DNA of 64,000 nucleotides from Candidatus Eiseniibacteriota bacterium. GTDB lineage: Bacteria > Eisenbacteria > RBG-16-71-46. Under the pieces are notes generated by a model, which did not search any database, was not told where the DNA came from, and was given only the letters and a program-made list of their open reading frames with translations. The stretch lies in the NCBI GenBank assembly GCA_963717505.1, contig OY970342.1, forward strand, positions 1,248,001-1,312,000, given 5' to 3'. Position numbers and translations under genes: made by a program. This document shows, piece by piece, positions 40,286 to 43,711 of the stretch (positions are counted from its first letter, which is position 1; every line of letters begins with the position of its first letter).

Positions 40286-40726
40286 ATGATCAAGCGCACA
40301 GGATCAGCAGTCTGGAACGGCGGTCTGAAGGACGGCAACGGCTCACTCACCACTGGTAGCAAGACACTCAACCAGACCCCGTACTCGTTCACCTCCCGCT
40401 TCGAGAGTGGTCAGGGCACCAACCCCGAGGAGCTGGTCGCGGCGGCGCACGCCGGATGTTTCTCGATGGCGTTGTCGGTCAAGCTGGCCGAAGCGGGAAT
40501 GAAGCCCGAACGGATCGAGACCACCGCCACCGCGACGCTCGACAAGACCGACGCCGGCATGACGGTGACCGCGATTCACCTGGACCTGATCGCCGACGTT
40601 CCCAACGCGGACCCGGCCAAGTTCGAGGCCGCGGCACGATTGACCAAGGACACCTGCATCATCTCGCGCCTGCTGAACACCAAGATCACGCTCGAGGCCA
40701 AACTGCGGAGCAGCTCGCGGGCGTAG
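40286..40726 (+). CDS. osmC: OsmC family peroxiredoxin
   Basis: GGAGG RBS; GTNPEELVAAAHAGCFSMAL and TCIISRLL. Confidence 0.93.
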   Translation: MIKRTGSAVWNGGLKDGNGSLTTGSKTLNQTPYSFTSRFESGQGTNPEELVAAAHAGCFSMALSVKLAEAGMKPERIETTATATLDKTDAGMTVTAIHLDLIADVPNADPAKFEAAARLTKDTCIISRLLNTKITLEAKLRSSSRA

Positions 40727-40829
40727 TCACGGTCTGGGAGGTAGGGCCTTCGAGCCGCGCCGGGGTCGGTTTGGCCCGCGCTCGTGGCAGCTTCTTGCAG
40801 GCGGCGGTCGCTTCGGCTTAGATATTCGA

Positions 40830-41098
40830 GGTGTTCATCCGCGGCGCTCCTTCGGGAGTAGGCGCGGCGGAATCTCGCGGTCTGGGCGGCCGGGAGATCC
40901 GGGCGGGTTGGGACCCGCCGAGCGTGGCACGCCCGAACAGGAGGTGATCCCTTGGGTAGTTCCAGCGGCTTGATCGAGGTGGCGGCCCCGTAGGGGTAGA
41001 CCTCGAAGCGCGTGGCGCTCACGCGGGACACCCCGTTCCGGGGAACCCAACGCCACCAGATCATCGCAAAGGCCCCGGCGTGCAAACGCCGGGGCCTT
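40830..41098 (+). ncRNA. Putative structured RNA carrying a 13-codon micro-ORF (40952-40993) behind a 12-nt anti-SD-complementary site
   Basis: cUUCGg hairpin 40847-40858, several further stems, AGGAGGTGATCC at 40939-40950, GCAA-capped terminal hairpin. Confidence 0.5.
41069..41098. terminator. Perfect 13-bp hairpin between convergent transcription units
   Basis: AAGGCCCCGGCGT-GCAA-ACGCCGGGGCCTT directly after the phoX stop. Confidence 0.75.
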
Positions 41099-41099
41099 C

Positions 41100-42710
41100 T
41101 CATTGCCGCCGGGTGCCCCAGGGTCCGCGGATCGCGAACGTGATCCCCGGGTTCTGAATGTTCACGAACAGGGTCTCGCCATCCGGCGAGAAGCAGACGC
41201 CGGCCAGCTCGGAGCGGTTGATCGCGTTGCGCGCGAGCACGTAAAGCCCTCCGCGCGGCGTCAGGCCGACCAGGCGGTCGTCGTCGCAGCCGTCTTCCGC
41301 CGCGATCACGTCGCCGTGTGGCGCGTTGCACAGGTTGTCGGGACCATCGAGCAGCGATCGATCATTGGGCTCGACCACCAGCGTCAGCTCGTTCTTGACC
41401 ACGTCGAGCTTCCACACCTGTCCCGCGCGGGCCGGGCCGCCATTGGTGCAGCACAGGAAGACGGCGCGCTTGGTGTCGTCGAAGCTCATGCCCTCGCCGC
41501 GCGCGAACTGCGCGGCCCCCAGCCGATGACCCTGAGCGCGCGTGGAAGTCGGCGCCGTGCGCTCGATCAATTCCTTGCGCTCGACGCCATGCTCGGCCGA
41601 TCCGGCCGCGGCCGGGTTGCGCAACGGATCATCCGGGTCGCGTTCCATGTCCATGTCCGGATCGATGTCGGGAATCCGCACCCAGGCGATCTTGAACGGC
41701 TTGCCGATCGGCACTTGTTCGGCTTCGGGAGTCGGACTGAAGGGCGCGGTCGCGGCGATCGCGCGCGTCTGGCACTCGAGCGCCGAGGGTACTTCGCCCG
41801 ACCAGTTCTGCGTGCGCGCCGAAGGGCGCTCGATGATGCGCAGCGCCTCGAGCACGCCGCCCTTGCCCAGGTCGCCGGCCGCCAGCTCGAGGGGCGCTTT
41901 CATCCCGGCCGAGACGACGTCCGGCCGGAAGCGATAGAGGAGGCCGTCCTCGCGATCCTCGCTCAGGTAGACGTAGCCGGATTTGGGATCAACGCACAGC
42001 GCCTCATGATAGAAGCGCCCCATGGCCACGATCGGCACCGGCTCGACCAGTTCCCGGGCGCGCGCGTCTACCTCGAACACGTAGCCGTGGCGGCGCTCGG
42101 CGAGCGGGGTGCGGTCATGGTTCACCGGATCCGCGGGCCCCGGCAGGTAGGTGCACTCCTCGGCGCTGAGCCAGCTGTCCCACGGGGTGGCGCCGCCAGC
42201 GCAGTTGCGGAACGTGCCGGAAAGGCTCGCGAACGAGTTCACCAGATAGTCGTCCTCGTCAATCCACAACGTCGTCGTCCCGCCGGTGCCGAGCGGGTCG
42301 TAGGGCCGCACGCGACCGGGATCGACGCGCTCGGTCATACCGATGTCGATCTCGTGGTTGCGCACCAGCGCGGTCAGGCCGCGCTGGATGCGAAACGCGG
42401 CCATGCCGTCGTGGAGCGGGGGCACCGGGTCCCCGTTCGTCAGCTTCATGCTGAATCGTTCGTGCTGGGGAGCGCCGTACATCGCGGTCGAGAACGCGCG
42501 ATACGAGAACCCGGCGGGCAGATCGAGCAATTGCTTGGGATCGGGGACCAGCGGACCGTAGCCGCGCACTGCCTGCGTGGCGCCATGGGCCATGCGCGCC
42601 AGGACGACATCGAGGCTCGCCGGCGCCAGCGCCGCCGCACCCGCCGCGGCCGAGAGTCCGAGGAACCGGCGCCGGTCGAGCCGCCGGCGCCGCGACCGCT
42701 CGGGGCTCAC
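41100..42710 (-). CDS. phoX: PhoX-family (DUF839) alkaline phosphatase with Tat signal
   Basis: DRRRFLGLSAAAG twin-Arg signal; HDGMA, RNHE, NCAGGATPW, GRFYHEA, GPDN, ELAGVCFSPDG. Confidence 0.88.
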   Translation of the reverse strand: MSPERSRRRRLDRRRFLGLSAAAGAAALAPASLDVVLARMAHGATQAVRGYGPLVPDPKQLLDLPAGFSYRAFSTAMYGAPQHERFSMKLTNGDPVPPLHDGMAAFRIQRGLTALVRNHEIDIGMTERVDPGRVRPYDPLGTGGTTTLWIDEDDYLVNSFASLSGTFRNCAGGATPWDSWLSAEECTYLPGPADPVNHDRTPLAERRHGYVFEVDARARELVEPVPIVAMGRFYHEALCVDPKSGYVYLSEDREDGLLYRFRPDVVSAGMKAPLELAAGDLGKGGVLEALRIIERPSARTQNWSGEVPSALECQTRAIAATAPFSPTPEAEQVPIGKPFKIAWVRIPDIDPDMDMERDPDDPLRNPAAAGSAEHGVERKELIERTAPTSTRAQGHRLGAAQFARGEGMSFDDTKRAVFLCCTNGGPARAGQVWKLDVVKNELTLVVEPNDRSLLDGPDNLCNAPHGDVIAAEDGCDDDRLVGLTPRGGLYVLARNAINRSELAGVCFSPDGETLFVNIQNPGITFAIRGPWGTRRQ

Positions 42711-43711
42711 CGCCAGCGCAGGGACGGTGACAGGTCGTCGCCGGTGCTCGATTGCTCGAAGCCCTGGCCGACGACCGCAGTCGTCCGGTTGTAGTTCCAC
42801 ACGTCGAGCTTGCCGACGCCGTCGGAGCGCGCGGACTGATACGAGATCACGTCGCCATTCAGGCTGATGCTCGGCCGGCGATCTTCGGCATCGGTGCTGG
42901 GCAGATCGAGGCGGGTGAGCGACGAGTCCGAGAAATCGAACAGGTAGAGATCGAGATCTCCCTCGCCACCCGCGCGATCCGAGGCGAAGCACAGGAATCG
43001 CCCGTTGCCCGACAGCGACGGGTCGAGGTCGCGATCCGGAGAGATCAGGTCGGGCAGGTCGAGCAGCCCGAGACCCCGCCGCCAGACCAGCACGTCGGGG
43101 TTGCCATTGCGATCGGAGACAAACGCGATGGTGGTCGCGTCGTGACTGGGCGTGGGCGACATGTCGTTGAAGGCGGCCGTGGTGTCGAGCCCGGGCAGGG
43201 CCAACAGCGTGTCAGGTACGCCGTCCATCAACCGGATCCGCCGGAAGCCGCCGACCTGTTGGACGAAGGCCAGCTTGAGCAGGTCGCCGGAGAACTCGGG
43301 CTCGGTTTCGTCGTTCGCGGTGTTGACCCCGGGCAGCGCGACCAGTCCTGGAGGATTTGGTGCGCGATCGTAGAGCAGGATGTCGATGCCGGTTCCCCCG
43401 CCTCGAGCGCTCTCGAATGCGATCAGCCGCCCATTGCTCGAGATCGTCGGATTCAGGTCGGGGGCCGTGACGCTGTTCAGGTTGGGCACCGAGCGAAATC
43501 CGAGCTGATCCAGGTCGTACAGGTAGATGTCGAACTGACCCGGAATCTGGTTGCGGTCGCTCGAATAGACGACCAGGTGCTCGCCGCTCGAGTCTCCACC
43601 CGACGATGAAGTCGTGGCGTCGCACCCCGCGAGGGCAATCAAGGCGCACGCCAGCAGCCAGCCCGGCCGGGCGTTCTCCTGGGTCCCTGGCAAGCTCAGC
43701 CCTCCAGTCAT
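42707..43711 (-). CDS. TolB-like (PD40) beta-propeller lipoprotein
   Basis: LAGC lipobox; repeated P-s-xS-xdG-xx-iaF-xSdR units. Confidence 0.85.
   Translation of the reverse strand: MTGGLSLPGTQENARPGWLLACALIALAGCDATTSSSGGDSSGEHLVVYSSDRNQIPGQFDIYLYDLDQLGFRSVPNLNSVTAPDLNPTISSNGRLIAFESARGGGTGIDILLYDRAPNPPGLVALPGVNTANDETEPEFSGDLLKLAFVQQVGGFRRIRLMDGVPDTLLALPGLDTTAAFNDMSPTPSHDATTIAFVSDRNGNPDVLVWRRGLGLLDLPDLISPDRDLDPSLSGNGRFLCFASDRAGGEGDLDLYLFDFSDSSLTRLDLPSTDAEDRRPSISLNGDVISYQSARSDGVGKLDVWNYNRTTAVVGQGFEQSSTGDDLSPSLRWR

Follow-up and report, generated by a model that had tools for sequence, protein, structure and literature searches.

The intergenic stretch between osmC and phoX most probably holds, with a probability that we put at about 0.6, a stand-alone small RNA of ~270 nt that is loaded with ribosomes as a mini-mRNA and constitutes the long form, specific to this lineage, within a class of mini-ORF RNAs that spans several phyla. 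In our reading, the element engages the ribosome as a mini-mRNA or a riboregulator, and its binding to the 30S subunit and its translation are predicted from its sequence.

The element lies in the window, i.e., the whole stretch of 64,000 nt that was analyzed, where it is flanked by osmC (40286-40726, plus strand) and the convergent gene phoX (41100-42992, minus strand). This placement, given in a preliminary description of the locus, is borne out by the coordinates and by Pfam, which confirmed both genes, and the intergenic stretch with the element is present in a single copy in its own genome. The same description had recognized in the 12-mer AGGAGGTGATCC (40939-40950, plus strand) an exact complement of the 16S rRNA 3′ end. 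The only 16S gene detected in the genome ends in ...GGCTGGATCACCTCCTTTCT, and therefore the 12-mer is indeed the exact complement of the organism's own tail over all 12 nt. Within the family, the tail is identical in all 20 of the 89 genomes in which it is assembled, regardless of the presence or absence of the RNA. The 12-mer occurs twice in the 4.16-Mb genome, in the element and in the 16S gene itself; its single match in the window compares with a mean of 0.02 in 100 shuffled sequences, two of which contained a match. Its significance comes from the conservation of the element, because a lone 12-mer in 4.16 Mb is unremarkable (by our own arithmetic, ~0.5 occurrence of any 12-mer is expected by chance per genome of this size with equal base use). 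The parts of the RNA are as follows.

40795-40824, plus strand: promoter-like site seen in the sequence, with a -35 box TTGCAG (40795-40800) and an A/T-rich -10 region (~40818-40824)
Roughly 40831-41104, plus strand: RNA gene of ~270 nt with its own promoter-like site and terminator
~40839-40867, plus strand: P1, 5′ hairpin with a UUCG cap (minimum free energy [MFE] fold; the homologous helix covaries)
40868-40901, plus strand: P2/P2a, bipartite hairpin with a conserved GGGC loop (MFE fold and covariation)
40902-40920, plus strand: P3, hairpin GGGCGGG-UUGGGA-CCCGCC with an invariant UGGG loop (covariation, helix 4)
40939-40950, plus strand: extended Shine-Dalgarno (SD) sequence of 12 nt, exact complement of the 16S 3′ tail
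40952-40993, plus strand: mini-ORF MGSSSGLIEVAAP of 13 codons, with a TTG start (40952-40954) and a TAG stop (40991-40993), read from the sequence
Within 40976-40984, plus strand: internal SD-like GAGGTG (40976-40981), overlapping the 5′ strand of P6
40978-40984, plus strand: P6 5′ strand, GGTGGCG (covariation, helix 7)
41051-41057, plus strand: P6 3′ strand, CGCCACC, with a conserved ACCCAA just before it (covariation and MFE fold)
41069-41104, plus strand: intrinsic terminator with a 13-bp stem (41069-41081/41086-41098), a GCAA loop and a T-rich tail (fold)

Transcription would start at ~40831, as judged from the promoter-like site. A TTGAC box is found 131-143 nt upstream of GGAGG in 28 of the 32 further long-form loci examined in the family (L002-L065), and its counterpart in the window is TTGCA, 145 nt upstream of GGAGG. 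At the other end, the terminator lies ~75 nt past the stop codon of the mini-ORF, and the element abuts the stop codon of phoX. Two of the tetraloop stems proposed in the preliminary description, the UUCG-capped P1 and the GCAA-loop terminator, thus belong to the RNA; the other cUUCGg stem (~40807-40819) falls in the promoter spacer and is not part of it. The second GAGGTG reported inside the ORF is present at 40976-40981. The fold of the plus strand is more stable than all shuffled sequences, both for the intergenic stretch (z = -3.54, 0/100 shuffles) and for 40831-41104 (z = -3.76, 0/200 shuffles as good), whereas the fold of the minus strand exhibits no excess stability (z = -1.79, 6/100 shuffles as good). 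The MFE fold of the window contains P6. A further helix, P5, pairs the end of the SD and the start codon with an internal stretch; it is weak in the window, where it contains two mismatches, and its predicted energy ranges among loci from -6.6 (window) to -15.6 kcal/mol. The predicted duplex between the SD of the window and the 16S tail reaches -25.5 kcal/mol, a value that extends to -35.4 kcal/mol in homologues, which lengthen the SD complement to 15-16 nt. A common A-to-G variant of the SD (GGTGGTCC) retains a G-U wobble with the tail. The motif CGUAGGGGA was considered as a mimic of 16S helix 45 and discarded, as helix 45 of the organism reads differently and the motifs tried are absent. 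Other GGAGGTGATCCCGTG-type sites in relatives were likewise set aside, since they fall inside long coding frames.

Conservation, context and expression of the element

Homologues of the element are found in 65 of the 88 other genomes of the family, 53 of them in the long form and 12 in a short form that is devoid of the 5′ domain, and also in three further families of the phylum. None of the family genomes carries both forms together. We regard the two as interchangeable and the 5′ domain as a probable accessory. In BLAST searches, positions 40876-41099 of the window were matched in relatives at 68-75% identity. Eighteen aligned copies (alignment A1) provided a consensus fold and the covariance model R1, which detects one copy in 55 of the 89 family genomes, including that of the window and one short-form match. 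The two remaining families of the order gave no convincing match to R1; among 151 genomes sampled from the phylum, the model matched 4 of 12 genomes of one family (f17, 126-142 bits) and the single genome of another (f8, 80 bits), with none of these loci belonging to the seed. The window itself scores 147.2 bits (E = 3e-43, model positions 1-267), partly by construction because it is among the 18 seed sequences, and family loci outside the seed (L044-L066) score 223-253 bits. The window displays the complete long-form layout, i.e., P1-P3, SD, start codon, ORF, P6, and terminator.

The consensus fold of A1 is accompanied by compensatory changes in 21 of its 66 pairs. In a larger alignment of 39 loci to R1 (A2), 96.1% of the cells are paired, compared with 88.4% in shuffled alignments, and 33 of the 66 pairs display compensatory changes; none of 500 shuffles matches the observed values, although these figures lean towards the model because the alignment was fitted to it. 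Strong support in A2 falls on P1-P3, the terminator, and one pair of P6. All 7 pairs of the helix homologous to P1 (helix 1) covary across the 39 loci, and the P1 sequence of the window departs from the family consensus. Compensatory changes affect 10 of the 12 pairs of P2/P2a (helices 2 and 3) and 3 of the 6 pairs of P3 (helix 4), in which 100% of the cells are paired; 10 of the 12 pairs of the terminator (helix 10) covary. In P6, 22 loci have G-C at pair 183:286, 12 have A-U, and 4 have G-U. RNAalifold also predicts a helix that would mask the SD (helix 5), but this helix has zero covariation in A2. The hairpin CGAGGT..ACCTCG that the preliminary description drew across the stop codon fared less well than P6, with which it overlaps: the repeat is there, but its comparative support is weak, with 88.4% of the CGAGGU/ACCUCG cells paired vs 86.8% in shuffles, a pairing percentage reached by 3 of 500 shuffles, and two compensatory cells. 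A pseudoknot of the P3 loop (UGGG) with ACCCA of the 3′ domain or with the GCCC that precedes the SD is retained as an idea at most, its partners being invariant and the single variable flanking pair showing no covariation by eye; the covarying hairpin GUUGGG/CCCAAC in the short forms had suggested it.

The short forms, present in 12 family genomes that all lack the long form, have the following parts.

~45 nt before the SD: promoter, seen in the sequence
SD and start codon: ACGCGGAAAGGAGGUG(A/G)UCCA-UUG
Reading frame: ends in ..WIAEVAVR
Hairpin: GUUGGG/CCCAAC, covarying
P6 partner: ACAGCCCACC, followed by the terminator

The 89 family genomes contain 95 occurrences of the pattern GGAGGTGRTCCNDTG, vs 9 of the reversed control. 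A covariance model of the short forms (R2) scores 17.6-31.6 bits on long forms and 17.7-29.6 bits on alphaproteobacterial loci, the latter match not being independent as these loci were chosen by their SD motif; at E ≤ 0.01, a search with R2 did not recover the window.

Across the 39 long-form loci, the flanking genes vary between genomes and the downstream gene may be on either strand, which argues for a gene that stands alone. The stand-alone small RNA proposed in the preliminary description is thereby upheld: the element, which carries a promoter-like site and a terminator of its own, is conserved in single copy amid variable flanks, and the contigs found in RNA libraries are confined to it. 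No match to Hfq was found in the organism's own genome (marker completeness 86.7%). Nine RNA-library rows contain part of the stretch; four runs were placed, two of which (X12 and X13) yielded the same table and probably represent a single data set. The contigs are as follows.

40866-41082: contig X12/X13, 218 nt, 4 differing letters
40868-41038: contig X5, 171 nt, 1 differing letter
40914-41067: contig X11, 154 nt, 1 differing letter

These metatranscriptome contigs come from three studies and fall entirely within the element, none reaching osmC or phoX; contigs of this kind cannot prove RNA origin, strand or ends, and the uncovered parts (5′ of 40866 and 3′ of 41082) are uninformative on the ends of the transcript. 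Contigs of relatives are also found in RNA libraries, one of which starts at AGGAGGTGATCCA followed by GTG. Because a single-copy locus was assembled alone from small community libraries (25-57 million letters), an abundant transcript is the best explanation, and the RNA is probably abundant.

The mini-ORF and alternative explanations

The arrangement of an SD, a start codon, and a short ORF reported in the preliminary description recurs across 52 loci with its start, frame, length, and stop preserved. Among the 39 long-form loci, the ORF has 14 codons in 38 and 13 in the window, it starts with UUG in 38 and with GUG in one, and it stops at TAG in 37 and at TAA in two. Among the 13 short-form loci, it has 13 codons in one locus, 14 in six, and 15 in six, and stops at TAG (12) or TAA (1). 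Thirty-nine loci were initially chosen by their SD-start motif, which biases the SD and start columns; in every one, the start codon comes one base past ..UCC and the frame has 13-15 codons. A motif-independent look added locus L066, whose SD has two changes and whose 14 codons end at TAA, and locus L071, which has a GUG start, 14 codons, and a TAG stop. Differences in ORF length between loci amount to whole codons, and the two independent changes of the stop codon are both TAG to TAA. The +1 and +2 frames close after a median of 1-22 codons, whereas the ORF frame is kept in all 52 loci, including over the variable loop of P5, where no locus (0/52) has an in-frame stop. The stop codon is preceded at 9 nt by GAGGTG in 38 of the 39 long-form loci and in 12 of the 13 short-form loci. 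Codons in the middle of the ORF vary freely; in the 3′ half, all three codon positions are conserved alike, and thus RNA structure alone could explain much of the conservation of the ORF. Indeed, a common Ala/Thr change in the ORF is compensated 70 nt downstream in P6. Comparison of the loci indicates that an RNA constraint and a frame constraint both act on the element, and that the peptide sequence appears loosely kept. The idea of a stop codon restricted to RF1, suggested by the exclusive use of TAG and TAA in the 52 loci of the phylum, was weakened by the TGA stop of L079, a long-form-like locus in a MAG labelled Fibrobacteraceae, and by the use of all three stop codons in loci of the type of CC2171 (RF01867, an Rfam family compared below), both among the matches listed.

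The mini-ORF could instead be the actual product of the locus, i.e., a micropeptide gene of 13-15 amino acids with a C-terminal ..[WL]I(A)EVA.. motif, the RNA structure merely tuning its expression. We hold this explanation to be unlikely, albeit one to be taken seriously, as the frame, start, and stop are kept, indels are whole codons, both TAG-to-TAA changes keep the stop, and one change looks synonymous (TCG TAG to TCT TAA in L066); moreover, ..EV.A.. recurs close to the C-terminal end of the ORF in both forms and in many CC2171 ORFs, and UGG is in frame in 96 of the 103 alphaproteobacterial loci of the CC2171 type among the matches listed. However, the N-terminal two thirds are unconserved even inside one family, the C-terminal codons are conserved at all three positions with the Ala/Thr change answered in P6, and UGGAUC, the conserved stretch that encodes Trp-Ile, complements the SD tail. 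Furthermore, the reading frame over P5 differs between the two forms, as 37 of 39 long forms have TGGA in frame 1 and 10 of 13 short forms have it in frame 0.

That the RNA is a structured small RNA that is never translated, its SD-like 12-mer and "ORF" being by-products of P5 and P6 or of pairing with target mRNAs, seems improbable to us. Such an RNA would fit the nucleotide-level conservation of the 3′ half of the ORF, P5 and P6 account for the UGGAUC, GAGGUGGC, and CGCCACC motifs, and Rfam lists the related families under non-coding sRNAs. Yet it would leave aside the variable P5 loop that is free of in-frame stops in 52 loci while the other frames close, the length changes by whole codons, the replacement of a stop by another stop alone, and the occurrence, in every member, of a start codon at ideal spacing behind a maximal SD.

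The GGA-rich SD-like motifs could also titrate a protein, the element then serving as a sponge for the translational repressor CsrA. The organism's own genome encodes CsrA (91.4 bits), the RNA contains several GGA motifs, including AAGGAGG and GUGGAGG, and it is seemingly abundant enough to be assembled from small metatranscriptomes. We nevertheless judge this proposal highly improbable: CsrA is encoded by 82 of the 88 family genomes, including genera without the RNA, and hence there is no signal of co-occurrence; conservation covers the whole 16S-tail complement GGUGAUCC(A) and tolerates one wobble-compatible change; the GGA motifs are mostly in predicted stems rather than in loops; and the fixed start, frame, and stop would be unexplained.

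Finally, in leaders of the trpL type a tiny ORF precedes a terminator, as in leader-peptide attenuators. A cis-acting leader or attenuator of a neighboring gene, or a shared 3′ end of osmC and phoX, is hardly credible here in spite of this resemblance, of the sensor kinase or GGDEF gene that comes next on the same strand in some relatives, and of the FMN riboswitch located downstream of six scanned short forms, given that the next gene in the window is convergent, that the family and strand of the downstream gene vary across the 39 loci, that the element has its own promoter and a terminator ~75 nt past the stop with no alternative pairing seen, and that the FMN riboswitch looks separately transcribed because a further TTGAC box precedes it.

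A possible mechanism of ribosome loading

For the ribosome-loaded mini-mRNA that we favor, the arrangement of the SD and of P5 suggests a stepwise course of events. The A-rich, unpaired core of the SD (AAGGAGG) would provide a toehold where the 16S 3′ tail docks, and the tail would then zip on into GAUCC(A) and displace P5. Short forms and CC2171 have UGGAUC as the internal stretch of P5, a hexamer that the 16S tail contains as well. Once bound, the ribosome would initiate at the weak start codon, translate 13-15 codons, and unzip P6 on its way. A reading of the sequence places the internal GAGGUG ~8 nt behind the P-site codon when the stop codon is in the A site, and a ribosome at the stop would therefore have a second SD-like motif at initiation-like spacing behind its P site, with which the tail may pair again. 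The RNA would in this manner be kept ribosome-loaded, and either translation would remodel the 3′ domain or the RNA would hold ribosomes. Its purpose may thus lie in retaining ribosomes, in sensing the capacity for translation, in exposing a region that acts in trans, or in supplying the peptide. The main constraint on the element would then be the act of translation, over the sequence of the peptide.

A doubtful but more far-reaching extension of this mechanism is that the element belongs to a cross-phylum class of abundant "ribosome-trap" mini-mRNAs that would comprise RNAs of Ca. Eisenbacteria, Gemmatimonadota, Alphaproteobacteria (CC2171), and Actinobacteria (Ms_IGR-5). In such RNAs, the SD would complement the whole free 16S tail, and the internal tail hexamer would gate it in such a way that only 30S subunits with an intact and unoccupied 3′ tail could invade, and the ribosome would idle or cycle on the tiny ORF, re-anchored by the SD-like site at the stop. 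If true, a ribosome-trap RNA would park or count free ribosomes, for instance during slow growth; alternatively, a trans-acting 3′ domain would be coupled to the translation capacity of the cell.

Relation to known RNA families

Two other kinds of known RNA resemble the element in part. Leader-peptide RNAs that act in trans as well, such as rnTrpL/peTrpL of Sinorhizobium, and other dual-function sRNAs combine an ORF of ~14 codons with a terminator on a short structured RNA that is remodeled by translation, but unlike leaders of this type the element has no regulatory codon run and no downstream operon, and its SD is maximal. No antiterminator pairing was found, as the consensus fold contains no alternative partner for the terminator. 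STAB-SD-type 5′ stabilizers, in which an SD-like sequence protects an RNA by binding the 30S subunit, are comparable in that a strong SD complement near the 5′ part could tether the 30S subunit and stabilize the RNA; however, the SD of the window is followed by a conserved start, frame, and stop, and it lies ~108 nt from the inferred 5′ end.

The closest relatives are found among Rfam families. The whole window has no Rfam match at the gathering level. The hit to a known Rfam family that the preliminary description had named as grounds for refutation is at most a weak one: positions 40928-41097 (plus strand) match CC2171 with 26.1 bits (E = 0.0015), far from the gathering cut-off of 75 and from the 86-97 bits that true alphaproteobacterial CC2171 loci obtain with the same tool. 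A search of the organism's own genome with RF01867 returned five weak matches elsewhere (best 20 bits), the element not being among them. Two loci score 31.6-35.6 bits for CC2171, and six short forms score 26.7-42.6 bits for Ms_IGR-5 (RF02471, cut-off 45), for which the window has no match at E ≤ 10. Every score that links the element to CC2171 and Ms_IGR-5 is therefore below the Rfam cut-offs; the resemblance to both families nonetheless appears real in layout and motifs.

Like the window, CC2171 has a 5′ end GAAAGGAGGUGAUCCA directly followed by a start codon and a small ORF, a long-range helix that encloses hairpins, and an intrinsic terminator at its end; it also has an internal UGGAUC complementary to the SD tail. 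The two differ in several respects. The window reads AGGAGGUGAUCC-C-UUG and has 13 codons, whereas CC2171 starts are GUG; it possesses an extra 5′ domain of ~100 nt (P1-P3) that covaries across the 39 long-form loci; and the CC2171 transcript starts ~15 nt before the SD, which fits the short forms of the family but not the window. A scan of species genomes with a pattern spanning the element family and CC2171 yielded at least 120 loci. Among the matches listed, 113 loci, mostly alphaproteobacterial by record title, are of the CC2171 type, three loci with Gemmatimonad titles have frames of 20-21 codons, and one is L079. Among the same matches listed, CC2171-type frames have 19-30 codons except for two (14 and 33 codons; n = 113) and use all three stop codons, compared with the TAG and TAA stops of the family of the window. 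The conserved UGG of CC2171-type loci lies, among the matches listed, at in-frame offsets of 33, 36, 39, 42, 45, 48, and 57, and its being in frame in 96 of 103 such loci suggests that CC2171 is translated. Among the matches listed, 49 of 113 CC2171-type loci lack the internal GAGGUG 9 nt ahead of the stop, and hence the SD-like motif is not class-wide.

CC2171 was first discovered in Caulobacter and was detected by Northern blot in Methylorubrum, and the available part of the source describes it as expressed and uncharacterized (bioRxiv 10.1101/2022.01.24.477521). Ms_IGR-5 is presented, in the available parts of the respective sources, as a validated, uncharacterized sRNA (bioRxiv 10.1101/2021.12.14.472595; PMC10454040; PMC8079986; PMC8780764). 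The main texts searched, PMC4633059 among them, do not state a function or translation for CC2171 or Ms_IGR-5, nor were the cross-phylum link, the conservation of the CC2171 frame, or the tail-mimic pairing found in them. In a comparison by model consensus only, Ms_IGR-5, whose source organisms are Mycobacterium smegmatis and Streptomyces, reads GGAAGGAGGUGGUCC ... UGGAC ... GAGGUGGCUGCCCGCUAG ... GCGAAUUCC..GCAG.CACC followed by a terminator, nearly the same string as the short forms of the family.

The element and its relatives in a candidate phylum would link two Rfam sRNA families of distant phyla, devoid of an assigned function, by one design, which consists of a maximal complement of the 16S tail, a start codon one base further on, a tiny frame-conserved ORF, an internal partner of the SD tail, a long-range helix, and a terminator. 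If this design works as proposed, it would represent a widespread way to load ribosomes on RNAs that are not conventional genes, and relatives of the element are present in culturable hosts, namely Caulobacter, Methylorubrum, Mycobacterium smegmatis, and Streptomyces.

Genomic neighbourhood of the element

The small RNA gene between osmC and the convergent phoX has a terminator hairpin that adjoins the phoX stop codon and therefore may end both transcripts:
window 41069-41104 (+), terminator hairpin of the element
window 41100-41102, stop codon of the convergent phoX

At loci carrying the short form, which lacks the 5′ domain (P1-P3), the element and the riboflavin operon form a conserved neighbourhood. 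Six of these loci have an FMN riboswitch (Rfam RF00050, 48.7-105 bits, two of the six matches being cut off by the locus end) directly 3′ of the element's terminator, and at a further one, L074, ribD and a lumazine-binding gene lie downstream:
L198, L199, L203, L204, L205 and L206, short-form loci with the FMN riboswitch ~170-230 nt further downstream than the element

Partial copy, look-alike sites and RNA-binding proteins

Genome G028 holds a second, partial long-form copy ~7 kb upstream of its full copy, consisting of the 5′ domain without the Shine-Dalgarno (SD) sequence or the ORF. This copy may have decayed from a duplicate, or it may indicate that the domain can exist alone:
L072 2001-2143, partial copy, 48.4 bits

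The SD-like sequence GGAGGTGATCCCGTG also occurs inside coding DNA (L211-L218; genomes G003, G030, G032, G091 and G035), where it recurs within an Ala/Arg-rich repeated coding region, several copies of which occur in one genome; these sites have no relation to the RNA element.

A CsrA homologue is very strongly conserved, scoring ~91 bits in nearly all genomes of the family, and no Hfq was detected in a search of the window's own genome:
G000:C1:3982879-3983037 (L075), CsrA homologue

Gemmatimonad loci and comparison with CC2171

Among the matches listed, three loci from records with Gemmatimonad titles (L077, L113 and L122) represent a further variant, with an unchanged SD, the start TTG TCT AGT, 20-21 codons and the C-terminal end ..WASDR....; the model of the Rfam sRNA CC2171 scores 35.6 bits against L077. 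In CC2171 itself, the alphaproteobacterial loci among the matches listed (within L076-L195) contain a frame-conserved ORF of ~21-25 codons that encodes a MSHC..P.S...TWILAS.EV.AA-like peptide, uses all three stop codons and keeps the conserved UGG in frame in 96 of 103 loci; CC2171 looks protein-coding or dual-function. Two CC2171-type loci (L124 and L128), in metagenome-assembled genomes titled Hydrogenophaga and Parcubacteria, may be mis-binned alphaproteobacterial contigs.
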